Assembly: GCA_964614825.1 (NCBI GenBank)
Contig: CAZTNB010000001.1
Location: 338-64,337, forward strand
DNA from: an uncultured Gammaproteobacteria bacterium
GTDB lineage: Bacteria > Pseudomonadota > Gammaproteobacteria > Xanthomonadales > Ahniellaceae
Direction: 5' to 3'
DNA length: 64,000 nt
Both the position numbers and the translations under genes were made by a program. Each line of letters opens with the position of its first letter. The first letter of the stretch is position 1. The notes under the pieces were generated by a model. The model was given only the letters and a program-made list of their open reading frames with translations. It had not been told where the DNA came from and ran no database searches. Positions 15,809 through 63,979 of this stretch are shown in pieces.

Positions 15809-16936
15809 TTAGCGCACCGGCGCCGCGGCAGGCGAGCGCGCACCCGCGGCGGCGCCGTGGCCGGCCGGCGTCCGCGGCGCCCGCGAGGCATAGCCGAACC
15901 ACTCCGGCACCGCGGTCATCGCGGCGAACACCTCGAGGCTGGTGGTGCGCTCCACCGGCAACCGGCGCAGGCCGTAGCGGTCCAGGCGTCGCGGGTCGTT
16001 GCTGCCGGCCAGGTAACTGCAGCCGGCGACGTAGCCGGCGGCGCGCGCCACCGCCACCACGCGCTCGTCCCAGGCATCGCCACCTCCCACCGGATAGGAA
16101 ATGACGCTGGCCGGCTTGCCGAGGGCGCGCCCGATCGCATTGCGCGAGCCCACGATCTCCGCCTGCAGTTCGGCGTCGTCGAGCTTGGCCAGCATGCGAT
16201 GGCCCACCCCGTGCGAGCCGATCTCCATGCCGCCCTGGTCCATCTCGCGCAGCTGGTCCCAGGTCATGGGACGGCAGTCGGGCACCGGCCCGATCCGGGG
16301 CATGGCGCAGGCCAGCGCCAGGCGGTCGATCACCCGGATCTGGGCGTCGTCGTCGAGCGCCTTGAGCTTCGAGATCAGCGCCTGCGCCAGGCGCTGGCGG
16401 TCGCGCAATGCGGACGGCAGGGTCCCGGCGTGCCCGAGTTCGGGGATGTCGATCGCCGCCACGGTGGCGGCGCTGAGCACGTGCACGAACCAGTCGTAGT
16501 GGTACGGCAGGCCGCTGTCGATGTAACCGGTGGAGACGAAGAAGGTGGCCGGCACGCCCAGATCGCGCAGGATCGGGTACGCCACCCGGTAGTTGTCGTC
16601 GTAACCGTCGTCGAAGGTCACCACCAGCGCGCCGCGCGGCAGCACCTCGCCGGCGTCGAGCAGCGCCATCGCTGCGGCCAGGCCCATCGGCGCGTAGTGC
16701 CGCCGCACGTGCTGCATCTGCGCGCGGAAGCCGGCCGCGTCGGCGCTGAGCAGTTCGGGGTCGAAGCGGAATCGCCCGGCGTCGATGCGGTCGACCACCC
16801 GGTGGTAGGCCAGGATGCGCAGGTCCGGCCGCAGCAGGCGCCGGCCGTGACGCAGCGCGGGCAACAGGCCACTGCGCGCGACCGCCGTCGCGAGGCGCTC
16901 GCGCTTGCCCGGGACGTGGTCGGCGGGGTCGCTCAT
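15809..16936 (-). CDS. Polysaccharide deacetylase family protein (NodB-homology domain)
   Basis: 375 aa: ILAYHRVVD...ALVVTFDDGYDDNYRVAYPILRDLGVPATFFVSTGYI...GMEIGSHGVGH. Paralogous to the CDS at 62044..63063. Confidence 0.85.
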   Translation of the reverse strand: MSDPADHVPGKRERLATAVARSGLLPALRHGRRLLRPDLRILAYHRVVDRIDAGRFRFDPELLSADAAGFRAQMQHVRRHYAPMGLAAAMALLDAGEVLPRGALVVTFDDGYDDNYRVAYPILRDLGVPATFFVSTGYIDSGLPYHYDWFVHVLSAATVAAIDIPELGHAGTLPSALRDRQRLAQALISKLKALDDDAQIRVIDRLALACAMPRIGPVPDCRPMTWDQLREMDQGGMEIGSHGVGHRMLAKLDDAELQAEIVGSRNAIGRALGKPASVISYPVGGGDAWDERVVAVARAAGYVAGCSYLAGSNDPRRLDRYGLRRLPVERTTSLEVFAAMTAVPEWFGYASRAPRTPAGHGAAAGARSPAAAPVR

Positions 16937-17038
16937 CGGGGCGGATTATTGCAGCGCGGGCACCGGTCGCCGCAAGGCGATTGACCGCCGGCGCCGGCGC
17001 GGTAGCCTCTGTCGCTCATCCGGGTCAGGGGGAACCGC

Positions 17039-18049
17039 ATGGACATGCGGCGCGCGGGAGAGGAACGAGCCGATTCAGCGCCGCTCGCGCGGCGCGGCTT
17101 GCGCGGCTGGGCGCGCCACTGGCGGGTCAAGGGCGTGATCCAGAAAGTGCTGGCGGCGGTGCCCGGCGGCACCGGCGCCAACGACTGGCTGCAACGCCGG
17201 TTCGGCGGCCTGCGCGATCCGGCCGCGAACTTCGACGCCAAGGTCGGCGACTGGCTGGGCCTGATGGGCCTGCTGCGCGCGGCCGGGGTCGCTTCGGTCG
17301 CCGGCCGCGAACTGCTCGAGATCGGCACCGGCTGGTACCCCACCAGCCCGCTGCTGTTCGCGCTGGCCGGCGCGCGCACGTGCCACACCTACGACATCTC
17401 GCGCCACCTGGACGGCGCCATGACCCGGCGCCTGCTGGTGCACCTCGAGCGCCACCTCGACGCCGTCGCCACCGCGGCCGACCGCGACCCGGCGGACGTG
17501 CGCGCGCTGTACCGGCGCCTGCTCGACACGCGCACCGACGCGGACCTGCTCGGCACCGCGGGCATCGTCTACCACGCGCCGGCCGATGCCGCGCGCACCA
17601 CCCTGCCCGACGGCTCGATCGACGTGGTGTTCTCCAACAGCGTGCTCGAGCACGTCGAGCCGGCGCTGCTGCCCGGCCTGCTGCGCGAGTCGCGTCGGTT
17701 GATCGGCGCGCGCGGCGTCAGCCTGCACGCGGTGGCCTGCAACGACCACTATGCGCACTTCGACCGCGCGATCTCCTTCGTGCACTACCTGCAGTTCGAC
17801 GCCCGCCAATGGCGCAAGTGGAACAACGCGCTCAACTACCAGAACCGCCTGCGCGCGCCGGACTTCATCGCGATGGCCCGCGACGCGGGCCTCGAGATCA
17901 TGCACGAGGAGCGCGCGGTGCGACCGGGATCACGCGAGGCGCTGGCATCGATGCGCGTCGCGCCCGAGTTCGCCGCCTATTCCTTCGACGACCTGGTGGC
18001 GACCACGGTCAACTTCGTGGCGCGGGGCGCGCCGCCAGGAACCTCCTAG
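17039..18049 (+). CDS. Class I SAM-dependent methyltransferase
   Basis: 336 aa with motif-I-like LLEIGTGWYP and SIDVVFSNSVLEHV. Good coding-like composition. The exact start (M1 or M3) is uncertain. Confidence 0.75.
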   Translation: MDMRRAGEERADSAPLARRGLRGWARHWRVKGVIQKVLAAVPGGTGANDWLQRRFGGLRDPAANFDAKVGDWLGLMGLLRAAGVASVAGRELLEIGTGWYPTSPLLFALAGARTCHTYDISRHLDGAMTRRLLVHLERHLDAVATAADRDPADVRALYRRLLDTRTDADLLGTAGIVYHAPADAARTTLPDGSIDVVFSNSVLEHVEPALLPGLLRESRRLIGARGVSLHAVACNDHYAHFDRAISFVHYLQFDARQWRKWNNALNYQNRLRAPDFIAMARDAGLEIMHEERAVRPGSREALASMRVAPEFAAYSFDDLVATTVNFVARGAPPGTS

Positions 18050-19038
18050 CGCGCGGCGAGTCCGGTCGATTCCGCATCGACCTCGAAGACCCAGGTCGCA
18101 TACGGGAGGAACAGGTCCGCAGGCAGTCCAAGCGCCGTGCACGCGGCCTTGAAGCCACGATTGCCCGCGCCCAGCACGCGCGCCAGCCGATCGCGCCCGC
18201 GCTGCCGCAGGCGTACCGCCAGCTTGTCGATCGAGTTGAAGCGGTTCTGCGCCGAAAGGTCCACCACGCGCCGATGGTCATCCAGTACCCAGCGCCGCAA
18301 CTCCAGCCACGTCGGCCCGTACGGCTTGTTCTGCGCGATGCAGTGACGCCGACGCAGGCGCGGCAGTAACAGGCCCGTGTAGTAGTCGCGCGGGAACAGG
18401 CCGTTCTCGGCCGATATCACCAGCAGCCCCGCCGGGCGCAGCAGCCGCACCCAGTCCCTCACATGGTCCTGGCGCCGGTCGGGTATGAACTCGAGCACCG
18501 AATTGACGATCACGCGGTCGAACAGCCGGTCGGGAAACGGCAGGCCGGGCCGTGCGTCCACCCGTTGCAGATGCAGTTGGTCCGGTGGCACGCCGAAGTA
18601 TTCGGCACGATGCCGGCACGCCTGGAGAGATTCGGGTGTCGGGTCCACCGCGGTCACCTGCGCCCCGACCAAGGCCAATGCCACCGCGAGCGCGCCCGTG
18701 CCGCACCCGACTTCGAGCACGGCGGTGCCGGACACGCCGTAGTGCCGCTGAAGGGGATCGACCAGGTTGACCGCGTGCTCACGAATGCGCTCGAACTCGC
18801 GCAGGGTATCCAACTCCCGCTGCCTCGACTGGATGGGATCGGTCGACTGCTCCCAGGCCCGCGCGGCATAACCGTGCCCGGAGGCGACGTAGATGTCCTG
18901 GCGCGACGCCCCGGCGTGAATCGCTGCCCGGAACGCGCGAAAGGCCGGATCGTCGGTATCGGTGGGGCGCAGGCGTGCGGCCAGCGGCTCGAGTTCCGCT
19001 GTCGTCGCGGCCGGTCCGGGCGACTTCCTGGAAGCCAT
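18046..19038 (-). CDS. Class I SAM-dependent methyltransferase
   Basis: 330 aa: VLEVGCGTGALAVALALVGAQVTAVDP (motif I), FDRVIVNSVLEFI, LRPAGLLVIS. Last gene of the minus-strand Wzy-Wzx operon. Confidence 0.85.
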   Translation of the reverse strand: MASRKSPGPAATTAELEPLAARLRPTDTDDPAFRAFRAAIHAGASRQDIYVASGHGYAARAWEQSTDPIQSRQRELDTLREFERIREHAVNLVDPLQRHYGVSGTAVLEVGCGTGALAVALALVGAQVTAVDPTPESLQACRHRAEYFGVPPDQLHLQRVDARPGLPFPDRLFDRVIVNSVLEFIPDRRQDHVRDWVRLLRPAGLLVISAENGLFPRDYYTGLLLPRLRRRHCIAQNKPYGPTWLELRRWVLDDHRRVVDLSAQNRFNSIDKLAVRLRQRGRDRLARVLGAGNRGFKAACTALGLPADLFLPYATWVFEVDAESTGLAAR

Positions 19039-19139: not shown

Positions 19140-20255
19140 TTAGGCCCGGTAGGCCGACTCGTATCGCGCGGCCATGGCCGGGATCGAGGCCGACGCCAGC
19201 GCCCAATCGCGCCCGGCCCGGCCCATGTCGCGGGCGCGCGCGGGATCGGCCAGCAGTGCCGCGAGGGCATCCGCGAGGCGCTGCGGATCGCGTGCCGGCA
19301 CCAGCAGGCCGTTGATGCCGTTGCGCACGATCTCGCCGTTGCCGCCCACGTCGGTGGCGACGATGGGCAGGTCGGCGGCGCAGGCTTCGAGCAGTGCGAT
19401 CGAGTAGCCCTCGGTCAGCGAGGACATGGCGTAGAGATCGAGGCCCGCGAGCAGGCGCGGTACGTCGCTGCGGTCGCCGAGCAGGATCACCCGGTCGGCG
19501 ACCCCCTCCGAGGTCGCGGCGGCCTCCACCTCGGCACGCAGGGCGCCATCGCCGATCCATGCCAGCGCGGTCGCCGGATGGCGCTCGCGCACCATGCGAA
19601 AGGCCCGCACCAGCGACACCGGATCCTTGGCCCAGTTGAGGCGCCCCACGGCGCCGATCAGCCGCGTGCCTTGCGGCAGGCCCAGTTCGCGCACCAGGGC
19701 CGCGCGCGCCGCGTCGTTGGCGGGTTCGAAGGCATCGAGGCGGATGCCGTTGGGGATGGCGACCACCTTGGCGGCGGGAATCAGGCCCTGCGCCAGCACC
19801 TCGCGGCGCGCCGCCTCGCACACCGTGACCACCACGTCGGTGCGCGACAGCGCGCGGCGGAACAGCCACTCGCGCCGGCCACCGGGCTGCTGCACCCCCA
19901 TGCCATGGCGGGTGTTGATCGTCCGGCGGACGCCGAGGCCCAGCGCCGCCGCGACCGCGTGGTAGTGCGCAACCGCATTGTGGGTGTGCAGCACCTGCGT
20001 GCGGTGCCGGCGCAGGTGGCCGCGCAGCCGCGCGATGGCGACCAGGTCGAGCCCGCCGCGCTTGCCGCAGGCATGGACCGGGACGCCGGCCGCGGCGAGT
20101 TCGCCGGCCAGCGAGCCGGCCTCGAACAGGCACACGACCTCGCAATCGTGACCCAGCCCGCGCTGCGCGCGCACCAGGTCGATGACCACGCGTTCGAGCC
20201 CGCCGCGGTTGAGGTTCTCGACGACGTGGCTGATGCGCAGCGGCGCGTGGCTCAT
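19140..20255 (-). CDS. Glycosyltransferase family 4 (GT-B, retaining type)
   Basis: ORF 19140..21500, trimmed to ATG at 20255 (MSHAPLRISHVVENLNRGGLERVV...). C-terminal YAMSSLTEGYSIALLEACAADLPIVATDVGGNGEIV. ATGA overlap with the upstream gene. Confidence 0.88.
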   Translation of the reverse strand: MSHAPLRISHVVENLNRGGLERVVIDLVRAQRGLGHDCEVVCLFEAGSLAGELAAAGVPVHACGKRGGLDLVAIARLRGHLRRHRTQVLHTHNAVAHYHAVAAALGLGVRRTINTRHGMGVQQPGGRREWLFRRALSRTDVVVTVCEAARREVLAQGLIPAAKVVAIPNGIRLDAFEPANDAARAALVRELGLPQGTRLIGAVGRLNWAKDPVSLVRAFRMVRERHPATALAWIGDGALRAEVEAAATSEGVADRVILLGDRSDVPRLLAGLDLYAMSSLTEGYSIALLEACAADLPIVATDVGGNGEIVRNGINGLLVPARDPQRLADALAALLADPARARDMGRAGRDWALASASIPAMAARYESAYRA

Positions 20256-21610
20256 GCGATCTCGGACACGGTCACGCGGACCTTGCCCGAGGGCCCCAGC
20301 GGCAGCTCCTCGACCCGCTCGATCGCGAGCGTCATGCCCTCGCCCACCACCTTGCCGATCTGTTCGCGGCAGCGCCGCTCGGCGGCGGCGTCGAAGGCGG
20401 CGTCGGCGACCAGGCTGATGTCGAGCCGGTCGAGCTGGCGCTGGTGCACGCGGAAGCGCTTCACGCCCGGCGTGTCGTTGAACAGGAACGGGAAGAACTC
20501 GCCCGGCACCACGCGTCCATCGGGTGCGCGGATCGCGTCGAGCGTGCGGCCGACCACGCGCGCCAGCCGCGGCAGGCCGCGGCCGCAGGCGCAGGGCGTG
20601 GCCGGGCCGGGCACGGCGGTGTCGCCGTTGACGTAGCGCACGAACGGCATGCCGTAGTTGTGCAGGTCGGTCACCACCACCTCGCCGATCTCGCTGCCGT
20701 CGAGCGCCGGCTGGCGGTTCGCCACCTCCACCACCAGGTGGTCGGCGTTGACGTGCAGGCCTTCCTGCCGCTCGCACTGCGAGGCGACCAGCATGAACTC
20801 GCGGCAGCCGTAGGTGTTGTAGGCCTTGCAGCCGAAGGCGCGCTCGATCAGCTCGCGCTGGAAGTCGTGCAGCGCCTCGGCCGCCCCCAGTATCGACTGC
20901 GGGCTGTGCACCTTGCGCCCCTGCTCGAGCAGCCATTGCGCCAGGCGCACCAGCGGGTTGACGTAGCCCACGATGACGCGCGGCCGGTAGCGGTCGATCT
21001 CGTCGGCGTACTGCGCCATGTTGGCGCCCGACATGAGGTAGGTGTTGAGCACCTTGCGGCCGAACACGCGATGGTAGATGCCGTCCTTGATCCGATGCAG
21101 GTCGGTCGGCCCGTCCACCGGCGCGCCCCACAGGTACAGGGTGCGACGCCCCATGCGCGAACCGGCCCACCCGTAGCCGCGCCACATCACCGCGATGCGG
21201 CGTTCGAAGCTCTCGCGCGTGTAGCCCAGCCGCAGCGGCTCGCCGGTCGAGCCGCTGGTGCTCTTGTAGAGCATCCGGCCGCGCAGCGAGCGCGCGTGCA
21301 TGTCGTCGTAGTTGTCGCGGATGTCGCGCTTGGTCAGCACCGGCAGGCGCGCGTAGTCCGCCAGCGTGCGGATGTCGCCCGGCTCGATGCCGGCCTCGGA
21401 CCAGCGCCGGCGGTAGTACGGCACCTCGTTCCAGCAGTGGGCGAGCAGGCGCTGCAGCTTCTGCCACTGGATCGCGGCGATGCGCTCGGCCGGCAGCCAC
21501 TGGTCGCGCTCGTACTCGCGCAGGTAGCGCAGCGTGTGGCGACGGCGCAGCCCGCCCTCATAGAGCGGGAACAGCAGCTTGCGGAACAGGGACTCGTACA
21601 GGTCGCTCAC
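20252..21610 (-). CDS. PaaK/CapK-like adenylate-forming ligase (phenylacetate-CoA ligase / F390 synthetase family)
   Basis: ORF 20252..22879, trimmed to GTG at 21610 (VSDLYESLFRKLLFPLYE...). P-loop-like YKSTSGSTGEPL. 452 aa. GTGA overlap with the Wzx stop. Confidence 0.8.
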   Translation of the reverse strand: MSDLYESLFRKLLFPLYEGGLRRRHTLRYLREYERDQWLPAERIAAIQWQKLQRLLAHCWNEVPYYRRRWSEAGIEPGDIRTLADYARLPVLTKRDIRDNYDDMHARSLRGRMLYKSTSGSTGEPLRLGYTRESFERRIAVMWRGYGWAGSRMGRRTLYLWGAPVDGPTDLHRIKDGIYHRVFGRKVLNTYLMSGANMAQYADEIDRYRPRVIVGYVNPLVRLAQWLLEQGRKVHSPQSILGAAEALHDFQRELIERAFGCKAYNTYGCREFMLVASQCERQEGLHVNADHLVVEVANRQPALDGSEIGEVVVTDLHNYGMPFVRYVNGDTAVPGPATPCACGRGLPRLARVVGRTLDAIRAPDGRVVPGEFFPFLFNDTPGVKRFRVHQRQLDRLDISLVADAAFDAAAERRCREQIGKVVGEGMTLAIERVEELPLGPSGKVRVTVSEIA

Positions 21611-23160
21611 GTCGCCTCCCGGGCCGCCCTGCGGCCGGCCCATGCCAGCAGTCCGTCCAGCCCGGGCACGCGGCCCGACCCGATGCGCGCGAGCAGTTCG
21701 CGGATGTGCGCGATGTCGGCCACGCTCCAGCAGCCCAGCAACAGCGTCGCGAAGGCGTACGACAGCGAGACCACGACGAAGCCGGTGACGACCGCGGGCA
21801 ACGGATGCCCGATGTAGTGCGAAGGGAACGCGCACGCGGCGGCGATCGCGCCGGCACCGCCGATGCGCAGCAGGCGCGCCCACGGCAGGCGGGTGCCGCC
21901 GGTGCGCGCGCCGAACACGATCATCGCCGCGGCGCTGGCGATGGTCGCGACCGCATAGGCGGCGATCGCCCCATGCAGCCCGAAGCCGCGGATCAGCACC
22001 ACGTCCAGCCCGATCTTGAGCAGCCCGCACAGGAACACGATCGCCAGCACGATGTTCTGCCGCTCGGAGCTCATCAGCAGGCTCGACCCCCCCTGCGAGA
22101 CCACCGAGACCGACTTCGCGAACAGGATCACGGCGAAGGCCGGGGCGGCGGCCAGGTAGGCGTTGCCGTACAGCACCGCCATCACCGGCTCCGCGAACAG
22201 GACGCCGAAGGCCAGCAGCGGCATGGCCAGCAGCGCGAGGTAGGTGGTCGCGCCGACGAAGCGGCGGCCGGCGGCCTCGCGGCTCTGGCTCAGCGCGTTG
22301 GCCATCATCGGCAGCAGCAGGACGCCGAACACCCCTGGCACCAGCAGCGTGGCGCCGTCGGCCAGCTGGTAGGCGACCTTGAACTTGCCGGCCGCCGACG
22401 CGGTGTCGAGCAGGTTGAGGAACATCACCTCCACCTCGCTCGCGGTCACGTAAGTGATGATCACCATGACCGCGGTGATGCGCATGTGGCGCACGACCCG
22501 CGCGTGCAGCGACTCGGGCAGCGCCAGCCCCGCGGGGGATTCCGGCACCAGTCCGCCCGTCTGCCGGCTGGACACGAAATAGAACACCGCGCTGGAGACC
22601 GCGTACACGCCGAGGAAGCCCTCGACCGGCGCGCTGACCCACCACGCCAGCGCCACCAGCAGCAGGTTTGCCGGCGCCGCCACCGTGGCGATCACCGCGG
22701 TGGCGCGGAAGTGCTCGAAGCCCTTGGCGATGCAGACGTTGAACATGTAGTTGGCGCGCAACGCGGTGGACAGCGCCATGAGCAGGAACAGCAGCAGGTG
22801 GTTGAAGCCCGGCACGAGGTGGTCGCCGGCGAACCAGAACACCGCCGCGCCGGCCGCCAGCACGGCGACGAGGAACCACTGCTGCACGCGGCGCAGGAAG
22901 GCCAGCAGCGGCGCGATCAGCTCCGGGGTGCCGGCGCCGCGCAACTCGGCCACGAAGCGGATCACCGCGCCGGCGGTGCCGGCATTGACGATGGTCATGC
23001 TCACCGCGACCAGCCAGATGACGAGGCTGTACGCGCCGAAGCCGCCCGGCCCGAGGTCGCGCGCGATCAGGATCGAGGTCAGCATGCCGAGGAAATACTC
23101 GGTGTAGATCGCCACCGAGGTGAAGGCCGTGTTGCGCAGCGTGGTCGATCGCGTGTTCAT
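21607..23160 (-). CDS. Wzx-like polysaccharide flippase (MOP superfamily), copy 1
   Basis: ORF 21607..24546, trimmed to ATG at 23160 (MNTRSTTLRNTAFTSVAIYTEYFLGMLTSILIARDLGPGGFGAYSLV...). 517 aa, multi-TM. ATGA overlap with the Wzy-like stop. Confidence 0.85.
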   Translation of the reverse strand: MNTRSTTLRNTAFTSVAIYTEYFLGMLTSILIARDLGPGGFGAYSLVIWLVAVSMTIVNAGTAGAVIRFVAELRGAGTPELIAPLLAFLRRVQQWFLVAVLAAGAAVFWFAGDHLVPGFNHLLLFLLMALSTALRANYMFNVCIAKGFEHFRATAVIATVAAPANLLLVALAWWVSAPVEGFLGVYAVSSAVFYFVSSRQTGGLVPESPAGLALPESLHARVVRHMRITAVMVIITYVTASEVEVMFLNLLDTASAAGKFKVAYQLADGATLLVPGVFGVLLLPMMANALSQSREAAGRRFVGATTYLALLAMPLLAFGVLFAEPVMAVLYGNAYLAAAPAFAVILFAKSVSVVSQGGSSLLMSSERQNIVLAIVFLCGLLKIGLDVVLIRGFGLHGAIAAYAVATIASAAAMIVFGARTGGTRLPWARLLRIGGAGAIAAACAFPSHYIGHPLPAVVTGFVVVSLSYAFATLLLGCWSVADIAHIRELLARIGSGRVPGLDGLLAWAGRRAAREAT

Positions 23161-24416: not shown

Positions 24417-24718
24417 GCGGGATGCGGTCGCCGTGGGCAGCGTTGACGGGACGGCGGCGGGGTCGCCGCGCCGGGTCGCGGGGCGCGGCGCGGTGGGCCG
24501 TCGCCCGGCGGCTCGAGCGGCTGCAAAGGTACCACCAGCCCGCCACGACGCGGCAGCGGGCGGATGGGTCCGCGGTGGATGCGATTGTCGGTGGCGCCGG
24601 TCATAATGCCGGCCGGGGAAATCGCAATGCCTCCCGTTCGCGCAGCGGCCACCCCGGGCACCGGCTGGCGTCGCGGACCGGGGTGCTGTGCATCGAGAGG
24701 GGCGGCACGCAAGTGAAC

Positions 24719-28125: not shown

Positions 28126-28133
28126 GCCGCGGC

Positions 28134-29039: not shown

Positions 29040-29075
29040 GGCCGGCGATGATACGGCAGCTGTTATCCTGCGGCG

Positions 29076-29894: not shown

Positions 29895-29903
29895 GCGGTC
29901 CGC

Positions 29904-42655
<12,752 letters not shown>

Positions 42656-45211: not shown

Positions 45212-45496
45212 GGCGGGATGATAACGGCGCGCGGCCGACCGATCGCCGGCTGCATCTGGTAAATTTTGGGGTTGGGGGCTGCGCGGAGGGATTGCGCGCG
45301 GACCGGCGGCGGCACCGCTCGTGCCTGTCGTCGCAGTCCCCCGGGCCGGCCGCGTGCCGGGACCGGCGGGCACATCGCCTGGAGCGCGAGACGTGAGTTG
45401 CCAGTTGCACCCGAGGGGGCCATCGCCGTGCCGGCCGGCGCGCATGAGAGCTTGCGCGCCCCCTGCGCGGCGCCGGTGGCCGGCCGGGTCATCGCC

Positions 45497-55804: not shown

Positions 55805-55960
55805 GGCTCCACCTCCGGCCGGACGACTGCGGGCCAAGATAGCGTCTGGCGCCGCGCGGGGGAACCTCCGCCAGAGCACGGCTCCGGCGGCCGGGCGACC
55901 GGGAACGGGCCCGGTTCGGGCATAATCGGCGTCTTCGCATCGGGGGAGTCCGCAGTGGCC

Positions 55961-56209
55961 ATGTCGCAACGCGCGCTGGTGAGGCAATTCATCCTCAAGA
56001 ACTTCCTCTTCACCGAGGACGAGGCCGCGCTGGCGGATGGCGACTCCCTGATCCGCTCCGGGGTGGTGGATTCCACCGGCGTGCTGGAGCTGATCACGCA
56101 CCTGGAGGAATCGCTGGGCATCCGCGTGCCGCCGGAGGAAATGGTGCCGCAGAACTTCGACTCGATCGACGCCATCTGCGCCTACCTCGCACGCAAGGTC
56201 CCGGCCTGA
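55961..56209 (+). CDS. Stand-alone acyl carrier protein
   Basis: ORF 55631..56209, trimmed to ATG at 55961. 82 aa. Phosphopantetheine-site-like SGVVDSTGVLELITHLEE. Confidence 0.8.
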   Translation: MSQRALVRQFILKNFLFTEDEAALADGDSLIRSGVVDSTGVLELITHLEESLGIRVPPEEMVPQNFDSIDAICAYLARKVPA

Positions 56210-57752: not shown

Positions 57753-58738
57753 CGCAACTGGACTGGAACGTACTCGATCTCGACTACGAGCGCGAAGCCA
57801 CGCGCATCGCCGCGCGGCTGCGCGAGATCGTCGGCCGCACGCTGCACCGGCGCGGCCTGGTCGTGGCCATTTCCGGCGGCATCGACAGCTCGACCTGCCT
57901 CGGCCTGGCGGTGCGTGCGCTGGGCCCGGACAAGGTCCATGCGCTGATCCTGCCCGAGCGCGATTCCAACGACGACAGCGCGGCGCGCGCGCGCATCCTC
58001 GCCGACCACCTGGGCGTGCGCACCCAGACCCACGACATCGAGCCGGCGCTGGCCGCGATCGGCTGCTACGAGCAGCGCGACGCGGCGGTGCGCCGCGCCC
58101 TGCCCGGCTACGGCCCCGGCTGGCGCTTCAAGATCGTGATCGCCGGCGGGCGCGAGGGTCGCATCAACTATTTCCGGCTGGTCGCCAAGGCGGCGGACGG
58201 CACCGACCACGACGTGCCGCTGCCGCTCAACGAGTACCTCACGATCGTCGCGGCGACCAACTTCAAGCAGCGCATCCGCAAGACCCTGGAGTACTTCCAC
58301 GCCGACCGCCTCAACTACGCCGTCACCGGCACGCCGAACCGGCTCGAGTACGACCAGGGCTTCTTCGTCAAGAACGGCGACGGCGCGGCCGACGTCAAGC
58401 CGATCGCGCACCTGTACAAGAGCCAGGTCTACGGCATGGCGCGCCACCTGGGGCTGCCGGAGCGGGTCTGCGCCGCGGTGCCGACCACCGACACCTACAG
58501 CCTGGCGCAGGGCCAGGACGAGTTCTACTTCGCCCTGCCCTACCGTTCGATGGACCTGGCGCTGTGGGCGCTCAACCACCAGGTGCCGGCGGCCGAGGTC
58601 GCGCGCGTGCTCGGCATCGGCGTGACCGAGGCCGAGGCGGTGTACGCCGACATCGAGGCCAAGCGTCGCACCACGCGCTACCTGCACCTGGCGCCGGTGC
58701 TGGCCGGCGAAGTCCCGGAGCTGGACCTGCACCCGTGA
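57749..58738 (+). CDS. NAD synthetase (NadE)-family PP-loop ATP pyrophosphatase, without a glutaminase domain
   Basis: ORF 56324..58738, trimmed to GTG at 57749 (GTGA overlap with the ligase stop). PP-loop VVAISGGIDSST. 329 aa. Confidence 0.8.
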   Translation: MTQLDWNVLDLDYEREATRIAARLREIVGRTLHRRGLVVAISGGIDSSTCLGLAVRALGPDKVHALILPERDSNDDSAARARILADHLGVRTQTHDIEPALAAIGCYEQRDAAVRRALPGYGPGWRFKIVIAGGREGRINYFRLVAKAADGTDHDVPLPLNEYLTIVAATNFKQRIRKTLEYFHADRLNYAVTGTPNRLEYDQGFFVKNGDGAADVKPIAHLYKSQVYGMARHLGLPERVCAAVPTTDTYSLAQGQDEFYFALPYRSMDLALWALNHQVPAAEVARVLGIGVTEAEAVYADIEAKRRTTRYLHLAPVLAGEVPELDLHP

Positions 58739-59784
58739 GCGCAGCGCCGCCCGTGTCGCCGTATGCGGTCGAGATCGGGGAGGTCGCACGCGACCGCGAC
58801 ACCCTGCTCGCGATCTGGCGCGGCAACCTCGGCGAGCCGGCGCGCATGGCGGCGAAGTACGACTGGTTCTATCGCGGCTGCCCCTACGGCGAGCCGCTGG
58901 TGTGCCTGCTGCGCCACCGCGAGAGCGGCGCCGCGGTGGGGGTCGCCGTCGCCGGCCCGCGGCGCATGCAGCTGGGCGCGCGCAGCCTGCGCGCGGGCGT
59001 GCTGGTCGACATGGCGGTGCTGCCGGAACACCGTAGCCTGGGCCCGGCGCTGGCCTTGCAGCAGGGCCTGATGCAGGCGGCGGCCAGCCGTTTCGACCTC
59101 GTCTATGGATTCCCGAACCCGAAGGCGGCACCGGTGTTCAAGCGCGTCGGCTACGCCGCATTGGGCGAGATGGTGCGCTACGCGCGCGTGCTGCGCCATG
59201 CGCGCTACCTGGCGCGGCGCATGCCGCGGCCGCTGGCGCGGCTGGCGGGCACGGCGGTCGACCTTGCCGTCGCCGCGCGCGATGCCTGGCGGCGGCGCGG
59301 CGATCCCGCGCTGCGGGCGCAGTGGATCGACCACCTGGGCGCCGACGCCGATGCGCTGTGGAGCGCCGGCACGCCCTCGCCCATGGCGCTGGCGGTGCGC
59401 GACAGCGCGCTGCTGGAGTGGCGCTTCGGCCACGGCCCGGAGTCGCGCGTGCGCTATCTGGAATTGCGCGACCCCGCCGACCGGTCGCTGCGCGCCTGGT
59501 TCGCCGGCGAGGTCGTGGATGGCATCCTGCACGTCGGCGACTACTGGTCGACCGACGCGGCGCAGGGCGTGGGGCGCGTGGCGGTCGACGCCTTGCTGCG
59601 GGCTGCCCGCCGCGCCGGTTACATTGCGGTCTCGGTGCAGCTGGCGGGCGCGCCGGTCGAAGCCGCGGGGTGGCTCGCCGCCGGTTTCACGGCGCGCGCG
59701 CGGCGACCGGTCTACGGTCGCTGGTTCGGCAAGGAAGCGGCGCCCGCCGGGCTGCACCTGACCGCCGTGGACGAGGACGAGTGA
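58735..59784 (+). CDS. GNAT-fold acyltransferase-like protein (two-lobed, FemAB/BioF2-like size)
   Basis: ORF 58564..59784, trimmed to GTG at 58735 (GTGA overlap). GVLVDMAVLPEHRSLGPALALQQGLMQAA...YGFPNPKAAPVFKRVGY. 349 aa. Confidence 0.65.
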   Translation: MSAAPPVSPYAVEIGEVARDRDTLLAIWRGNLGEPARMAAKYDWFYRGCPYGEPLVCLLRHRESGAAVGVAVAGPRRMQLGARSLRAGVLVDMAVLPEHRSLGPALALQQGLMQAAASRFDLVYGFPNPKAAPVFKRVGYAALGEMVRYARVLRHARYLARRMPRPLARLAGTAVDLAVAARDAWRRRGDPALRAQWIDHLGADADALWSAGTPSPMALAVRDSALLEWRFGHGPESRVRYLELRDPADRSLRAWFAGEVVDGILHVGDYWSTDAAQGVGRVAVDALLRAARRAGYIAVSVQLAGAPVEAAGWLAAGFTARARRPVYGRWFGKEAAPAGLHLTAVDEDE

Positions 59785-59825: not shown

Positions 59826-62102
59826 ATGTCGACCCAACCGATGCGCGCGTTGTGTGGCCTCCTGCTGGCGCTGGGCGCGACCGCCGCGCCGGCGCAGCTA
59901 CCGCCCGAACCGTCGGGCCCGCATCCGCGCCTGTTCAACGAACCGGGCGTGCACGAGCGGCTGCAGGCGCTGGCCAAGACCCGCGGCAGCGCGGTGGCGG
60001 GCGCGGTGGCCGATTGCCGCGAGATCGCCGGCGCCCCGGGCCGCTTCGGCCGCGACGGCTACATGGGCCTGGATTGGGCGCGCTCGCTGCAGACCTGCCT
60101 GGTGGCCTGGCGCGCCACCGGCGAGGACAAGCATGCACAGACCGCGCTGGTCTACTTCAAGGCCCTGCTCGACGACCGCACCGAAGTCGGCGACGGCAAG
60201 GGTGGCGACAAGTCCGCCTCGCGCGACAGTGGCTATGCCATCCGCGCGCTGGGGCCGTACACCGCGCTCGCCTACGACTGGCTGCACGATCATCCCTCCG
60301 TGGACGACGCGCTGCGGGCGCGGGCGCGCCAGCGCTTCAAGGCCTGGACCGACTGGTACGTGAAGGAGGGCTACCGCGCCAGCCATCCCGGCAACAACTA
60401 CCACGCCGGCTATGTCGCCGCCGCCACCCTGATGGCGATCGCGCAGGGCGGCGAGGCCGGGCCGGACGGCGCCCGCCTGTGGCGCAAGGTGGTCGAGGAT
60501 GTCTTCGAGGAGCAACTGCTGCCGGCCGCGCGCGATGGCGTGCTGGCGGGCGGCGACTGGGGCGAAGGCTGGCAGTACGCGCCGTTGAGCGTGGCCGAGT
60601 ACGCGCTGTCGGCGCGCGCGGTCGCCGCGCAGGGACTGGACGTGGCGCCGATGGGCCAGTGGCTGGAGGACGTGCTGCTGCGGCATGTCTATGCCATGAC
60701 CCCGACCGGCGAGCGCACCGTGGTCGTGGGCGACACCCAGTCGGAGGTGCCGTACATCCGGGTCAACCGCCTGACCCTCGACGCCGTGGTGCTGGGCCCG
60801 GCGCCGCTGCGGGCGCGGCAGTGGGCGCGCGCCGAGATCGAGCGCATCGGCGACTTCAGCGACGACCTCAAGTACGTGCTGTACGCGGCGCTGGCCGAGG
60901 CCGAGGGCGTCGAGCCGGTGCCGTTCCCGCGCGACGAGGCGCCCAGGGCCTATTTCGCCTCCGGCACCTCGATCCTCTACGCGCGCTCGGGTTGGGACAA
61001 GGGCGCGATCTGGTTCGCGGCGTTCTGCTCGCCGACCATCGACGTCGACCACCTGCCGCCGAACGCCGGCAACTTCGTCCTCTCGCGCGGGCGCGACCAC
61101 GCGATCGTCGATCCCTCGCCCTACGGCAGCCTGTCGAGCCTCACCAGCAACGCGCCCGCGGTCGAGGCGCCGGGACAGCCCGACGGCTACGTGCCGAGCC
61201 AGGCCTTCTGGAGCCGCGACACCGGCTTCCGCTGGAAGCGGACCCTGCCGGGCGGGATGCTGCTGGCGCGCTGCGACTATGCCGACCAGTACCGCTTCCG
61301 CGACGTGCCGAGCCCGATCAAGCTGGCGCGGCGCGACTTCCTGCTGCTGCCTTGGCGCGACTCCGCCGGCGCCGAATCCGCCACCCTGCTGGTGCTCGAC
61401 CGCGCGCGCACGCGCGAGCCCGGCCACGGCCTGCACCTGCGCTTCCGCGCGCCGGTGGAGCTCGACCAGATCGGCAACGGCGGCGCCGGCAAGCTCAAGG
61501 ACAGCCAGGTCTCGATCCTGCGCCTGGCCGGCTCCGGCGGCGATGTCGAGGTCAAGCGCCAGGAGGGCGGCGACTGCTTCGACGACAAGCGCTACACGCG
61601 CGGCAACTGCGACGCGGCCCGCTTCGACATCGGCGAGGTGCGCGTGGTGGTCCCGGGCACCGACGCCGATGCGCTGTTCGAGATCGACGTGGCGCCGATG
61701 ACGACGACCACGCCCAAGGCCAGCGCATTGACCGCGACCGGCGGCCGCGCGTGGCTGCTCGAGCGCGACGGCAAGCGCTACGTGGTGGCCGAAGCCGCCG
61801 GCGACGGCGTGCTGACCTACAGCGCGCCCACGGCGGGCGCCACCCACGTGGTGCTGCCGGCGGCGGACGCCGGCGCCGGCAGCGTGGCGGTCGAAGTGTT
61901 GGCGGCCCTGGACGATTGCCGGGTCAGCGTCGGCGGCGATGCCGGCCGCAAGCTGCCCGGCAGGCCCCTGGTGTTCGCGACCGCCGCCGAATGCGCCGTG
62001 CAGGAGGTGCCCGCCAGCGAGGTGCTGCCCGACGCGCAGGGGATCAGGCGAGCAGGCGCTGCGGCCGCCGGAACAGGTACAGCGCCAGCCGGTCCGGCCT
62101 GA
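59826..62102 (+). CDS. Secreted heparinase II/III-like (alginate-lyase-superfamily) polysaccharide lyase
   Basis: ORF 59322..62102, trimmed to ATG at 59826. Signal peptide MSTQPMRALCGLLLALGATAAPAQ. N-terminal alpha/alpha-toroid-like part, then DVDHLPPNAGNFVLSRGRDHAIVDPSPYG. 758 aa. Confidence 0.7.
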   Translation: MSTQPMRALCGLLLALGATAAPAQLPPEPSGPHPRLFNEPGVHERLQALAKTRGSAVAGAVADCREIAGAPGRFGRDGYMGLDWARSLQTCLVAWRATGEDKHAQTALVYFKALLDDRTEVGDGKGGDKSASRDSGYAIRALGPYTALAYDWLHDHPSVDDALRARARQRFKAWTDWYVKEGYRASHPGNNYHAGYVAAATLMAIAQGGEAGPDGARLWRKVVEDVFEEQLLPAARDGVLAGGDWGEGWQYAPLSVAEYALSARAVAAQGLDVAPMGQWLEDVLLRHVYAMTPTGERTVVVGDTQSEVPYIRVNRLTLDAVVLGPAPLRARQWARAEIERIGDFSDDLKYVLYAALAEAEGVEPVPFPRDEAPRAYFASGTSILYARSGWDKGAIWFAAFCSPTIDVDHLPPNAGNFVLSRGRDHAIVDPSPYGSLSSLTSNAPAVEAPGQPDGYVPSQAFWSRDTGFRWKRTLPGGMLLARCDYADQYRFRDVPSPIKLARRDFLLLPWRDSAGAESATLLVLDRARTREPGHGLHLRFRAPVELDQIGNGGAGKLKDSQVSILRLAGSGGDVEVKRQEGGDCFDDKRYTRGNCDAARFDIGEVRVVVPGTDADALFEIDVAPMTTTTPKASALTATGGRAWLLERDGKRYVVAEAAGDGVLTYSAPTAGATHVVLPAADAGAGSVAVEVLAALDDCRVSVGGDAGRKLPGRPLVFATAAECAVQEVPASEVLPDAQGIRRAGAAAAGTGTAPAGPA

Positions 62103-63063
62103 AGCGGCCGTCGGCATCGGCCACGGCGGCAGTCTCGAAACCGAGCCGGCCGAGCAGCCAGCCCGGGGCCGGCGCGACCGGGTTGAGCGCCGGCACGCTG
62201 GTGAACACCAGCTCGTAGCCGGCCTCGCGCGCGCGCCGCGCGATGTCCAGGTCGTACTTGCCGTGCGGGAACGACATCGTGGCCGGGGCGCTATCCGCGG
62301 GCAGGCGCGCGGCGACCTCGGCCCGCGCGCCCGCCAGCTCCGCCTCCAGGTCATCGGACCGGGTCAGCGGCTCGTGGGTCTTGCCGTGCAGGCCGATCTC
62401 CACCCCGCCATCGCGCAGCTGCCCCAGCTCGGCGGCGCTGACCATGTTGCGCACGCCGTCGTCGAGCCGCGCCCCCAGCCGGGCCAGCACGCGCTCGCGC
62501 TGCGCCAGCGGCACCGACTCGAGTTCGGCGATCAGGCGTCGCAGCGACGCGTTGTCGTTGCCCGCCACCGGCGCCGCCGGATAGCCGCTTTCCACCAGCG
62601 CCTGGCGCAGGTCCTCCACCGGCAGGCTGCCGCGGCGCCAGGCCCCGACGATCTGCTCCTGGTAGAAGGGCTGGCGGCGGTCGACCGCGTCGGCCACCAC
62701 GAACAAGAGCCCCGGCATGCCGGCGGCGCGCAGGCGCGGCAGGGCGAACTCGACGTTGTCGGCCCAGCCGTCGTCGAAGGTGATCAGCAGCGCGCGCGGC
62801 GGCAGCGGCCCGCCGCCGCGCCGCGCCGCCAGCACCTGTGCGGCGGCGACCACGTGGTAGTGGCGGCGGAAGAAGTCCAGGCAGCGCGCGAACAGGTCGG
62901 CGGCCAGGGTGTAGTCGGGATCACAGCCCGCCCAGCGCGGATCGCGGGCGTCGAGCACGCGATGGAACATGATCACGGTGAGCGTCCGCCGGTTCCGCAG
63001 GCGGTGGTACAGCCCGAGCAGGCCGCTACCATAGAGCAGTTTCTTGACCAGATCCGACAGCAT
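62044..63063 (-). CDS. Polysaccharide deacetylase family protein (NodB-homology)
   Basis: ORF 62044..63294, trimmed to ATG at 63063 (upstream ATGs are also possible). LTVIMFHRVLD...ALLITFDDGWADNVEFALPRLRAAGMPGLLFVV...GVEIGLHGKTH. Paralog of 15809..16936. Confidence 0.82.
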   Translation of the reverse strand: MLSDLVKKLLYGSGLLGLYHRLRNRRTLTVIMFHRVLDARDPRWAGCDPDYTLAADLFARCLDFFRRHYHVVAAAQVLAARRGGGPLPPRALLITFDDGWADNVEFALPRLRAAGMPGLLFVVADAVDRRQPFYQEQIVGAWRRGSLPVEDLRQALVESGYPAAPVAGNDNASLRRLIAELESVPLAQRERVLARLGARLDDGVRNMVSAAELGQLRDGGVEIGLHGKTHEPLTRSDDLEAELAGARAEVAARLPADSAPATMSFPHGKYDLDIARRAREAGYELVFTSVPALNPVAPAPGWLLGRLGFETAAVADADGRFRPDRLALYLFRRPQRLLA

Positions 63064-63979
63064 GGCTCGCGACATCGACGTTTCCGCCATCATACCAACC
63101 TGGAACCGGCGCGAGCTGGTGCTGCGCGCGCTCGAAACGGTGCTGGCGCAGACGCTGCAGCCGCAGGAGATCATCGTCGTCGACGACGGCTCCACCGACG
63201 GCACCGGCGCCGCCATCGCGCAGCGCCACGGCGACCGCGTGCGCCACGTGTGGCAGGAGAACGCCGGCGTGTCGGCGGCGCGCAACCGCGGCATGGCGCT
63301 GGCGCGGGGGCGCTACCTGGCGCTGCTCGACAGCGACGACGAATGGCTCCCGGAGAAGACGCGCCTGCAGTTCGAGTTCCTCGAGGCGCGGCCGGACTAC
63401 GGCATGGTCCTGTGCGACGTGGTGCGCATGGATGCCGCGCACCGCGACATCGAGGTATTCCGGCGCCGCGAACTGATCCCCGAGGACGGCAGGGTGCTGC
63501 GCTGGGTGCTGCGCGAGCCGGCGCTGGTGCCGGCGTCGGTCATGCTGCGGCGCGAGGTGCACGCCGGGATCGGCGGCTTCGACACTGCGCTGGCCACGGG
63601 CGAGGACCTCGATTTCCACCTGCGCGTGGCCCGCAGCTGGCCGATCGGCATCGTCGAGCAGCCGCTGGTGCGGGCGATGCGCGGCCACGACGGCCTGTCC
63701 AGCCTGGCCCGCACCTACGACGACTACCTGCGCGTGATCGAGCGCGCGGTGGCGCTGGCCGCGGCCGAAGGCAGCGTGGACCAGGTTGACCGCGACGCCG
63801 CCCTTGCCGGGGCCTACCGCCGCAACGCGCGCGGACTGATCTTCCAGCGCCGCTGGGGCGAGGCGCTGGCGCTCGCGCGCAAGGCCTGGCGCCTGGAGCC
63901 CTCGCGCCGGGGCGAGTTGCTGGCGCTGCTGCCGCTCGCGGGCCGCCGCGCGCTGGGCGCGCTGCTGGGGCGCGGCTGA
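63062..63979 (+). CDS. Glycosyltransferase family 2
   Basis: ORF 63044..63979. Probable ATG at 63062 (MARDIDVSAIIPTWNRRELVLRALETVLAQTLQPQEIIVVDDGSTDGT...ARNRGMALARGRYLALLDSDDEW). Confidence 0.88.
   Translation: MARDIDVSAIIPTWNRRELVLRALETVLAQTLQPQEIIVVDDGSTDGTGAAIAQRHGDRVRHVWQENAGVSAARNRGMALARGRYLALLDSDDEWLPEKTRLQFEFLEARPDYGMVLCDVVRMDAAHRDIEVFRRRELIPEDGRVLRWVLREPALVPASVMLRREVHAGIGGFDTALATGEDLDFHLRVARSWPIGIVEQPLVRAMRGHDGLSSLARTYDDYLRVIERAVALAAAEGSVDQVDRDAALAGAYRRNARGLIFQRRWGEALALARKAWRLEPSRRGELLALLPLAGRRALGALLGRG

Follow-up and report, generated by a model that had tools for sequence, protein, structure and literature searches.

A hybrid NRPS-PKS cassette in an XrtA-related exopolysaccharide locus: a candidate system for peptide decoration of a bacterial polysaccharide

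The DNA analyzed here, referred to as the window, is a stretch of 64,000 nucleotides from an uncultured gammaproteobacterium (GCA_964614825.1, contig CAZTNB010000001.1). Between position 15809 and its right edge, it carries 31 genes, comprising a putative exopolysaccharide (EPS) locus and, within it, a cassette built around a hybrid of a nonribosomal peptide synthetase and a polyketide synthase (NRPS-PKS), hereafter called the synthetase (Table 1). The G+C content of about 73% fills raw lists of open reading frames (ORFs) with spurious frames; genes were therefore called by a log-odds model of codon usage and third-position G+C (GC3) and annotated by Pfam and NCBIfam scans. Because independent rearrangements at three junctions keep the synthetase and the EPS gene set together, functional coupling of the thiotemplate system to the glycan genes, rather than chance neighborhood, is well supported. 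That the peptide decorates this EPS is plausible but unproven, and we put its probability at roughly 55%.

In the synthetase, the domains run A(Val-like)-T-KS-AT(malonyl)-T-AMT-C-A(Gly)-T-C-A(Gly)-T, where A stands for adenylation, T for carrier, KS for ketosynthase, AT for acyltransferase, AMT for aminotransferase, and C for condensation domains. The Cys-His-His triad of the KS domain is intact (TACS, HGTAT, NVGH), as are the AT motifs GHSVG and HAFH, the latter being the malonyl signature, the four carrier serines, the two HHxxxDG motifs, and the aminotransferase lysine motif. At the sequence level, the window thus holds the A, T, KS, AT, and C catalytic motifs of a functional hybrid line together with a phosphopantetheinyl transferase (PPTase, 44450-45211). 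No thioesterase (TE) or reductase (R) domain was found in the synthetase, which stops approximately 70 residues past the last carrier domain, and Pfam domains and motifs revealed no starter C domain in it either.

The specificity positions of the A domains were set by GrsA numbering, using a reference segment that is internally consistent with the known positions. The code of the first A domain, DALWFGGTF-K, with Asp235 and Lys517 present, is one residue off the common Val code DALWIGGTFK (PMC12283262). The second and third A domains share the code DILQLGLVW-K, read from the motifs and reproduced by script, which is close to the Gly code DILQLGMIWK (PMC12283262). Because it carries a Val-like amino-acid code, we assign the first A domain as an amino-acid adenylation domain rather than a fatty-acyl ligase. 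The line is predicted to end with a carrier-bound 3,4-diamino-5-methylhexanoyl-Gly-Gly thioester, small, hydrophilic, and free of lipid. The domains are observed, and the assembly chemistry proposed for them follows the established logic of KS-AT-T-AMT units, for which C2 extension and installation of a β-amino group have been described in the flavipulchrins (PMC12819058). An iturin-like lipopeptide and a lipid anchor like that of glycopeptidolipids (GPLs) were both considered and were rejected on the amino-acid code of the first A domain and the absence of a lipid-loading domain; neither a FAAL/Cs fatty-acyl starter nor TE-type macrocyclization was found in the window synthetase.

Read in reverse, positions 26602-45211 of the window give the order PPTase, hyd1 (divergent), hyd2, synthetase, TIGR04325 methyltransferase, cupin, and Wzx. 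This order is kept in Lysobacteraceae (L005-L012; L numbers denote fetched loci), in Kofleriaceae (L013-L023 and L034), and in L085. Because the conserved order in the nearest clades includes a Wzx beside the synthetase, we assign one of the two window flippases, Wzx2, to the cassette; homologues of Wzx2 at 53-61% identity keep synteny with the synthetase in L005, L006, L008, L010, and L085. The PPTase is the commonest neighbor of the synthetase (28 loci). The cupin gene adjoins the synthetase in 18-20 loci, with identity of up to 81%, and the TIGR04325 methyltransferase gene does so in 14-17, while hyd2 is syntenic in 17-25 loci and hyd1 is found in 16-28. The gene hyd2, whose own start is probably 43465 or 43498, overlaps the start of the synthetase by 4 bp, so that the two are translationally coupled. 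Sequence searches of the PDB with hyd1 and hyd2 returned generic α/β esterases only.

The synthetase family is large. For the T-AMT region there are more than 1400 homologues, the best of them 67-79% identical, and a scan of one genome per GTDB species placed relatives in at least 582 genomes of Proteobacteria, Myxococcota, Bacteroidota, Gemmatimonadota, and Planctomycetota, from which 80 loci were fetched. Neighbors were counted by mapping the window proteins onto these loci and by de novo clustering of all flank ORFs. The clustering recovered PPTase (28 loci), hyd2 (17), hyd1 (16), Bac_transf (16), cupins (18, plus 5 of a Bacteroidota type), the TIGR04325 methyltransferase (14), MOP flippases (14), PMT_2 (5), UDP-sugar dehydrogenase (5), GT2 (at least 4), and Wzc (4). 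With sensitive seeds, 28 of the 59 synthetase loci whose flanks total 5 kb or more, in several phyla, showed polyprenyl-glycan machinery, counted as a flippase, Bac_transf, Wzy_C, PMT_2, or Wzc within approximately 9-10 kb of total flank; by an estimate from the small number of such genes in a genome, chance would account for a few per cent. The association recurs, with different gene orders, in Lysobacteraceae, Rhodanobacteraceae, Kofleriaceae, Burkholderiales, and Bacteroidota. The A-domain codes split the family into a branch with a Val-like starter followed by Gly or Gly-Gly (Proteobacteria, Myxococcota, and one planctomycete) and a branch with a Pro-like starter (Bacteroidota and some Lysobacteraceae). 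Within the latter, the Flavobacteriales/Chryseobacterium loci (L055, L057, L062, L066, L067, L072, L077, L079, L081, and L084) mostly have a Val-like second module; a very large repeat-rich surface protein is encoded upstream in six of them, and a PPTase and a RecD-like helicase follow downstream in most. The product of this branch may have a different fate.

Synthetase and EPS genes meet at three kinds of junction. In the window, the cassette lies between g09 and a GT2 gene, and L085 has the same order on the g09 side. In L002, L003/4, L039, L045, L047, L050, and L082, the synthetase is found at the alaS end, beside a beta-helix protein, Bac_transf, and PPTase; the beta-helix gene of L003 shares 65% identity with its L095 counterpart, the gene at the head of a NodB3-GNAT-NadE-ligase-ACP cassette. 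In Rhodanobacteraceae (L029-31, L040, and L087), the synthetase stands directly upstream of NodB-WzyC-Wzx-CapK. L087, from Rhodanobacter sp. BL-MT-08, has synthetase, NodB, WzyC, Wzx, CapK, GT4, GT4, NodB, GT4, g09, and GT2 as eleven genes on one strand, with 4-bp overlaps at six consecutive junctions from WzyC onward, which we read as the signature of one operon. Searches from the glycan side led back to the synthetase. All three places examined from CapK (two genomes and one Logan contig) show the same cassette, and both that reach far enough upstream, L085 and L087, contain the synthetase; L085, 76% identical by CapK, matches the window gene for gene from 15.8 to 43 kb. The search anchored on NodB3 recovered the right-hand cassette (GT4, AsnB, sometimes a methyltransferase, GSDH, ACP, ligase, NadE-like, GNAT, NodB3, and GT2) in approximately 25 metagenome loci, and in L090 a synthetase-hyd2-hyd1 block lies approximately 3 kb from it. 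Independent rearrangements that keep two gene sets together are a classical signature of functional coupling.

In L168, L169, and L170, g09 is followed directly by a g17-type GT2 (64-66% identity). Since the two genes are adjacent in these synthetase-free relatives, the 18.6-kb cassette is an insertion exactly at the g09/GT2 junction. The core of L168 (a complete Pseudoxanthomonas genome) and L170 consists of GT4, GFO/SDR fusion, and GT, then NodB, WzyC, Wzx, GT4, NodB, g09, and GT2, and continues with a hydrolase pair, an outer-membrane (OM) barrel, a chain-length determinant, and Poly_export, at 48-78% identity to the window; neither locus has a synthetase or a CapK within 21 kb. In L172, ACP-ligase-NadE-GNAT runs straight into NodB-WzyC-Wzx-CapK-CapK with no synthetase within 10 kb, and because it is joined there to NodB-WzyC-Wzx without a synthetase, we assign ACP-ligase-NadE-GNAT to the core locus. 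Strict co-variation of CapK and synthetase was also considered and was rejected on the two CapK genes of L172.

An earlier note on this DNA had proposed a comparison of genomes for co-occurrence, and had held that a synthetase block absent from otherwise identical glycan loci, or located elsewhere, would indicate insertion of an unrelated biosynthetic gene cluster (BGC). Co-occurrence is borne out by the 28 of 59 loci and the three junctions; the block is also missing from the very similar loci L168 and L170 and is alaS-proximal elsewhere. Formally, this is the pattern described for an unrelated insertion, yet the block re-joins the same EPS locus family each time. Absence or relocation in relatives, together with this re-association, points away from an unrelated BGC and toward a mobile module that serves the EPS pathway as an optional accessory.

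The glycan genes resemble those of XrtA/PEP-CTERM (EpsH1-type) EPS loci, reportedly described by Haft et al. in 2006 and captured as Genome Property GenProp0652. The family set of these loci is TIGR03007/03013/03018/03027/03088/03097-03101/03108. L088 and L135 are 81-96% identical to the window from g22/g23 to g30, in the same gene order. Past the GT2, L088 encodes an OM beta-barrel, a tyrosine kinase, a chain-length determinant, a short Poly_export, a DnaJ-like protein, and a priming transferase. Its scores pass the cut-offs of TIGR03013 (494 vs 393), TIGR03007 (389 vs 279), and TIGR03027 (207 vs 180), whereas its tyrosine kinase fails that of TIGR03018 (180 bits, cut-off 231). The Bac_transf beside the synthetase in L041, which represents the cluster of 16 loci, scores 492 against 393 for TIGR03013, and the one heading the right-hand cassette in L095 scores 534. 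In the window, tblastn at E≤1e-3 found no Bac_transf, Poly_export, chain-length determinant, tyrosine kinase, OM barrel, or PMT_2; the priming transferase and the outer-membrane export and co-polymerase (OPX/PCP) proteins are found in L088, L168, and L170. These missing parts very probably lie just outside the window; the search beyond its edge proposed in the earlier note for a priming transferase and a Wza/Wzc-type set located both just past the GT2 in the close relative L088.

XrtA-system families are the top NCBIfam matches of g04, g07, g14, and g15 and the second-best of g23 and g26, with scores and cut-offs of 234/409 (stp2), 49/188 (PEP_O_lig_1), 82/168 (hydr1_PEP), 105/203 (hydr2_PEP), 355/592 (ligase_PEP_1), and 416/817 (eps_aminotran_1). 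The locus appears to work like, and to be related to, the XrtA/PEP-CTERM-type EPS family, and we stop short of filing it as a member. The description of the locus as a glycoconjugate system of no recognized kind therefore falls away for its glycan part, which goes with XrtA/PEP-CTERM-type EPS loci (L088 being above cut-off for TIGR03013/03027/03007).

Table 1. Genes called between 15809 and the right edge of the window. GT, glycosyltransferase.
Feature	Coordinates	Strand	Basis
NodB1, polysaccharide deacetylase, PgaB-like N-terminal part	15809-16936	-	Pfam Polysacc_deac_1 2e-24
Methyltransferase a	17039-18049	+	Methyltransf_23
Methyltransferase b, CpaM/DVU_1556-like	18046-19038	-	Methyltransf_11/25 (Pfam, NCBIfam)
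GT4 glycosyltransferase (g04)	19140-20255	-	Top NCBIfam TIGR03088 (XrtA-system stp2), 234 bits vs cut-off 409
PaaK/CapK-like adenylate-forming ligase	20252-21610	-	NCBIfam DVU_1553/PaaK-like; PF27533 CapK_C in homologues
Wzx1, MOP-family flippase of core locus	21607-23160	-	Pfam Polysacc_synt 9e-08
Wzy_C-family polymerase or ligase (g07)	23157-24416	-	Pfam Wzy_C 1.6e-17
NodB2, CE4 deacetylase (NodB/PdaB-like)	24683-25366	+	Pfam 1e-30
g09, membrane-anchored, 395 aa, conserved His/Asp motifs	25363-26550	+	No Pfam or NCBIfam match
Wzx2, second MOP flippase	26602-28125	+	Pfam Polysacc_synt 4.8e-09
Cupin_8/JmjC-type 2-oxoglutarate oxygenase, weakly FIH/JMJD5-like; candidate peptide hydroxylase	28134-29039	-	Pfam
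Methyltransferase, TIGR04325 (LIC12133) family	29076-29894	+	NCBIfam, 203 bits vs cut-off 80
Hybrid NRPS-PKS, 4251 aa	29904-42659	-	Pfam domains
α/β hydrolase hyd2, hydr2_PEP-like (g14)	42656-43480	-	NCBIfam TIGR03101 5e-30, below cut-off
α/β hydrolase hyd1, hydr1_PEP-like (g15), divergent from hyd2	43527-44453	+	NCBIfam TIGR03100 4.8e-23, below cut-off
Sfp/HetI-type PPTase	44450-45211	-	Pfam ACPS 5.8e-17
GT2, TuaG-like (g17)	45428-46261	+	Pfam, NCBIfam
Acyl_transf_3 membrane O-acyltransferase	46258-47340	+	Pfam 1.3e-26
NodS-like SAM methyltransferase	47530-48135	+	Pfam NodS 1.3e-17
GT, Glyco_trans_1_4, TuaH-like	48128-49324	+	Pfam, NCBIfam; 70-74% orthologues in L168, L170
GFO/IDH/MocA oxidoreductase fused to SDR epimerase/dehydratase	49329-51407	+	Pfam; 64-66% orthologues in L168, L170
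GT4, TuaC-like (g22)	51422-52588	+	Pfam, NCBIfam
AsnB-type glutamine amidotransferase (g23)	52677-54545	+	TIGR01536 469 bits, above cut-off
PQQ-type glucose/sorbosone dehydrogenase (GSDH)	54623-55804	-	Pfam GSDH 4.8e-134
ACP	55955-56209	+	Pfam/NCBIfam
AMP-ligase, ligase_PEP_1-like (g26)	56226-57752	+	NCBIfam
NadE-like PP-loop amidase	57749-58738	+	Pfam/NCBIfam
GNAT-like protein (g28)	58753-59784	+	Pfam/NCBIfam
g29, 758 aa	59826-62102	+	No family or PDB match
NodB3, PgaB-like deacetylase (g30)	62044-63294	-	Pfam, NCBIfam; anchor of metagenome scan
GT2, cut by window end (g31)	63062-63979	+	Pfam 8.5e-31

Nearly every item of the gene inventory first drawn up for 15809-63979 was reproduced by the codon-usage calls and the Pfam/NCBIfam scans. 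Its negative statements also hold: tblastn (E≤1e-3) and a motif search agree that the window lacks a priming transferase, a Wza/Wzc-type pair, and an MbtH protein, and no dedicated efflux pump is present among the called genes. Two statements had to be corrected. Not every gene is glycan- or carrier-related, the four exceptions being the Cupin_8/JmjC oxygenase, the GSDH dehydrogenase, g09, and g29; and the gene listed as a lyase, presumably g29, has no Pfam match even at E≤1, no NCBIfam match, and no match in a PDB sequence search. A permissive Pfam scan of the window proteins of unknown function gave nothing useful.

In the left arm, NodB1 is taken as the boundary of the system, with thrS merely a neighbor, because the L085 locus stops at NodB1 and unrelated genes follow; NodB1 orthologues come after the synthetase in L029-31, L040, and L087. 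Methyltransferase a has a 68% orthologue at the same position in L085 and 44-50% homologues inside the ACP-ligase cassette of many metagenome loci. The GT4 gene g04, with 58-72% orthologues in L085, L087, and L168-170, overlaps the CapK gene by 4 bp, and the CapK-like ligase shares an operon with WzyC-Wzx-GT4. Wzx1 orthologues are 49-65% identical in L085, L087, L168, and L170. A MOP flippase and a Wzy-type protein are both present above cut-off (Polysacc_synt 32.3 and 36.5 bits, cut-off 28.2; Wzy_C 64.1, cut-off 31.7). The Wzy_C family also covers ligases, so that the polymerase role of g07 is a prediction; its top NCBIfam match is the exosortase-A-associated O-glycosylation ligase TIGR03097, below cut-off.

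NodB2 overlaps g09 by 4 bp. The latter is the most conserved protein of the core locus, above any enzyme around it; its database homologues number more than 7000 across Xanthomonadales (74-94% identity), each of them annotated as hypothetical. Its invariant His/Asp motifs are FVDHFEP, HLHHDND, IHGNW, and HTHGTQE. A Foldseek search of its AF2 model (mean pLDDT 60.6) against the PDB gave no match at E≤1e-3. It appears to be a metal-dependent enzyme acting in the core EPS pathway. In L171, the core locus of a Dyella, a formyltransferase, a further NodB, and a FemAB-type Acetyltransf_6 are added beside g09 (11179-13943); these genes lend indirect further support to amino-acyl or acyl decoration of deacetylated sugars as a theme of the locus family.

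In the right arm, the GT4 at 51422 is kept at the end of the right-hand cassette in approximately 20 metagenome loci. The AsnB-type protein scores 416 bits against the XrtA amidotransferase TIGR03108, below the cut-off of 817. GSDH stands between AsnB and ACP on the strand opposite to its neighbors; because this position is kept in approximately 25 metagenome loci, the gene probably belongs to the pathway rather than being a passenger. ACP-ligase-NadE-GNAT recurs in approximately 25 metagenome loci at 46-92% identity, and the GNAT-like g28 found nothing in a PDB sequence search. Orthologues of g29 (82-84%) are present in L088 and L135. In addition, L027 (1-2838) and L085 (14785-16527) encode large, distant homologues of g29 (23-27%) without a family match, as do L073/L078, and proteins of this type recur at system edges in different genera. 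The terminal GT2 g31 is 85% identical to that of L088. The divergent NodB3 and GT2 ORFs overlap by approximately 233 nt at their 5' ends, both in the window and in the 81-85% identical L088 (6152-8081); one explanation is a start placed too far upstream in the annotation, the other a control region common to both genes and unusually compact.

Two further observations concern the wider locus family. A small DnaJ-domain protein is encoded on the opposite strand beside the TIGR03013 transferase in five loci (L002, L035, L045, L050, and L088, 955-1719 in the last), lying between the priming transferase and the synthetase/cupin in four of them and between the transferase and Poly_export in L088. 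In L129, and apparently also in its near-duplicates L130 and L132, a TPR-GGDEF diguanylate cyclase lies directly upstream of an ORF of 496 aa (region of approximately 5313-7361), and this ORF occupies the place that the priming transferase has in related loci such as L095; the arrangement hints at cyclic di-GMP control of this EPS locus family.

The left 15.6 kb of the window is a housekeeping backbone on the minus strand, thrS-infC-rplT-pheS-pheT-ihfA-MerR-tRNA-Pro, an order typical of Xanthomonadales. It occupies 8013-15621, with the EPS locus on the thrS side and an AraC regulator and a TonB-dependent receptor coming next on the other. In Xanthomonas, the same thrS-to-tRNA-Pro arrangement precedes the gum (xanthan) cluster. 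Rfam and tRNA scans of the window found no riboswitch and no island-boundary tRNA, their sole match being tRNA-Pro at 8013-8089, outside the EPS locus. A gene running off the left edge (3-2240) joins PD40/WD40-like beta-propeller repeats to a DNA-binding domain of the OmpR winged-helix type.

From these components, we propose the following route. The assembly line would load a Val-like amino acid and extend it with one malonyl unit; the in-line aminotransferase would turn the β-keto group into an amine, after which one Gly and then a second would be added. The cupin and the TIGR04325 methyltransferase may tailor the peptide, possibly by hydroxylation and methylation. Because the synthetase has no TE domain, the hydrolase pair is the candidate for off-loading the peptide. 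An amide bond would then couple the peptide to the repeat unit on its lipid carrier, without further activation or once the CapK-like ligase has re-activated it. As acceptor, the likeliest would be either an amine freed by a NodB deacetylase or a uronic carboxylate attacked through one of the peptide's own amines. The decorated unit would be flipped by a Wzx, polymerized or ligated by the Wzy_C protein, and exported by Wza/Wzc-type proteins encoded just outside the window, while the ACP-ligase-NadE-GNAT operon would provide a second, core route of acyl decoration for the same polymer. The original suggestion that the thiotemplate product is attached to, or primes, a lipid-linked glycan therefore survives in part: the tie to the glycan genes holds, whereas priming by the peptide is unlikely because the predicted product has no lipid and a close relative encodes a TIGR03013 priming transferase.

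Several points weigh against decoration of this EPS by the peptide. The attachment of peptide to glycan is deduced from gene neighborhood alone, and no dedicated peptidyl-to-sugar transferase was identified, the hydrolases resembling only generic esterases. Proteins of the MOP superfamily can export small molecules, and Wzx2 could be a simple efflux protein. The glycan loci L168, L170, and L172, with no synthetase nearby, suggest that the polymer can be made without the peptide, and CapK without an adjacent synthetase in L172 makes the proposed CapK-synthetase link look weak. No glycan genes were found in the flank ORFs of a Flavobacteriales subgroup of synthetases. As for the type of locus, the genes placed beyond the edge are predicted from the 81-96% identical L088 rather than seen in the source genome, every window protein scores under the curated cut-offs of the XrtA-specific families, the annotated neighbors include no exosortase, and neither the window ORFs nor L001-L167 contain a PEP-CTERM tail (two hits were spurious).

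Some of these points would fit a free, secreted small cationic peptide, acting as an antibiotic, a signal, or a metal-binding compound, with Wzx2 of the MOP/MATE superfamily as its exporter and the position in EPS loci reflecting co-regulation with biofilm matrix genes or the tolerance of such loci to insertion. The cassette is self-contained, with synthetase, PPTase, tailoring enzymes, releasing hydrolases, and a transporter-like protein; it is missing from glycan loci that are otherwise alike, its position varies from genome to genome, and its Flavobacteriales members lack glycan neighbors. In Rhodanobacter, it has been listed only as an orphan antiSMASH "NRPS, T1PKS" hit (PMC11596576). However, MATE-like export leaves unexplained why TIGR03013, PMT_2, Wzy_C, and Wzc recur beside the synthetase in several phyla, why L087 has a translationally coupled single operon, and why the relocated cassettes all come to rest in one EPS locus family; moreover, such a hydrolase pair is characteristic of XrtA EPS loci and not of NRPS clusters. 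We consider a free peptide unlikely.

The coupling to glycan genes would also be accommodated if the peptide ended up on another envelope acceptor, such as the lipopolysaccharide core or lipid A, a surface protein, or peptidoglycan, with a Wzy_C/WaaL-like or PMT_2-like transferase using a lipid-linked glycopeptide donor as in an O-glycosylation pathway. The Wzy_C protein does match O-oligosaccharyltransferase/O-glycosylation ligase families (TfpM 6.6e-11, TIGR03097), in Kofleriaceae loci and L001 the synthetase has PMT_2 (GT-C) genes directly after it, and a flippase from the Kofleriaceae group fits a Wzx model for O-glycosylation. No PMT_2 was found in the window by tblastn, however, and no acceptor protein is evident, while the chain-length determinant, tyrosine kinase, Poly_export, and OM barrel of L088, L168, and L170 are those of a secreted or capsular polymer, which makes another acceptor quite improbable. 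It is more improbable still that an unrelated NRPS-PKS island landed in a glycan locus by chance, and we give this very little credence. Compared with L168 and L170, the block is inserted, and the base composition, with a GC fraction of 0.72-0.76 throughout the window, argues neither way; but chance does not account for an association that recurs in five groups, from Lysobacteraceae to Bacteroidota, with different gene orders, for the synthetase in both L085 and L087, which were found from the CapK side, or for the operon fusion in L087.

Compared with known systems, the locus combines familiar parts in a different way. In canonical XrtA loci, the hydrolase-1/2 pair accompanies a set of ACP, ligase, and PLP-decarboxylase (TIGR03098-03101 family descriptions), and we know of no function assigned to these hydrolases or to the carrier-protein genes since the system was defined. 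The window likewise has a carrier protein and an adenylating enzyme with a pair of unrelated α/β hydrolases in an EPS locus. In contrast to the XrtA arrangement, the partner of its hydrolase pair is a 4251-aa NRPS-PKS and not the ACP-ligase-decarboxylase trio, the place of the decarboxylase beside ACP and ligase is taken by a NadE-like amidase and a GNAT, its proteins score below the XrtA family cut-offs, and no exosortase or PEP-CTERM substrate is seen in the fetched stretches. With iturin/mycosubtilin- and puwainaphycin/flavipulchrin-type lines, the synthetase shares a central KS-AT(malonyl)-T-AMT followed by C-A-T modules. It differs from them in its amino-acid starter in place of a fatty acid, which would give a β,γ-diamino acid without lipid, and in having only two Gly modules, no TE, no macrocycle, and a glycan-locus context.

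Mycobacterial GPLs have a lipopeptide aglycone, reductive release, and MmpL export. They resemble the window in an NRPS beside several glycosyltransferases, methyltransferases, and an acyltransferase, and are themselves peptide-sugar surface conjugates; the window, unlike them, has no lipid tail, R domain, or MmpL, and its glycan side appears to be polyprenyl-phosphate- and Wzx/Wzy-dependent. Nod-factor synthesis relies on the GT2 NodC, the deacetylase NodB, N-acylation from a carrier protein, and N-methylation by NodS. NodB-type deacetylases, a NodS-like methyltransferase, GT2s, and carrier-bound acyl donors are likewise found together in the window, and by analogy this set suggests deacetylation followed by N-acylation of an amino sugar. 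In contrast, no NodA or NodC equivalog was found, the matches being below equivalog cut-offs, and the expected product is a Wzx/Wzy polymer and not a lipo-chitooligosaccharide. In Collimonas, the activity of carenaemin, a PKS/NRPS product, depends on a pyruvyl transferase and a separate Wzx/Wzy locus (PMC8313283); that system differs from the window in its assembly line, its two unlinked loci, its diffusible antifungal product, and the lack of shared gene order. Searches of open-access full text turned up no account of an NRPS-PKS linked with XrtA-type or Wzx/Wzy loci, and subscription journals may differ. The components are of known kinds, and their coupling, its breadth, and the predicted β,γ-diamino-acyl-Gly-Gly substituent appear to be new.

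Beyond this one locus, we tentatively suggest, with somewhat less than even confidence, that widespread compact thiotemplate cassettes make β,γ-diamino-acyl-(Gly)n peptides for polyprenyl-linked glycans, giving EPS with non-ribosomal peptide stems. Cultured genomes with and without the cassette offer a ready genetic contrast: Rhodanobacter sp. BL-MT-08 is complete and carries it, as do Pseudoxanthomonas sp. CF125 and LjRoot125, and the complete Pseudoxanthomonas sp. CP114978.1 does not. If true, the orphan "NRPS, T1PKS" cluster that recurs with no product assigned in genome-mining studies of Rhodanobacter, and probably of Lysobacter, Pseudoxanthomonas, and Kofleriaceae, would be explained, and the carrier-protein, hydrolase-1, and hydrolase-2 genes of XrtA loci would gain a testable role in the transfer of carrier-bound aminoacyl groups to polysaccharide. 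An EPS with peptide stems would be cationic and possibly cross-linkable, applying a peptidoglycan-like logic to a secreted polymer, and would bear on the charge and cross-linking of the biofilm matrix, on phage and immune recognition, and on metal binding. It would represent a new kind of bacterial surface polymer, in which NRPS chemistry is coupled to Wzx/Wzy assembly, two fields that are normally treated separately.

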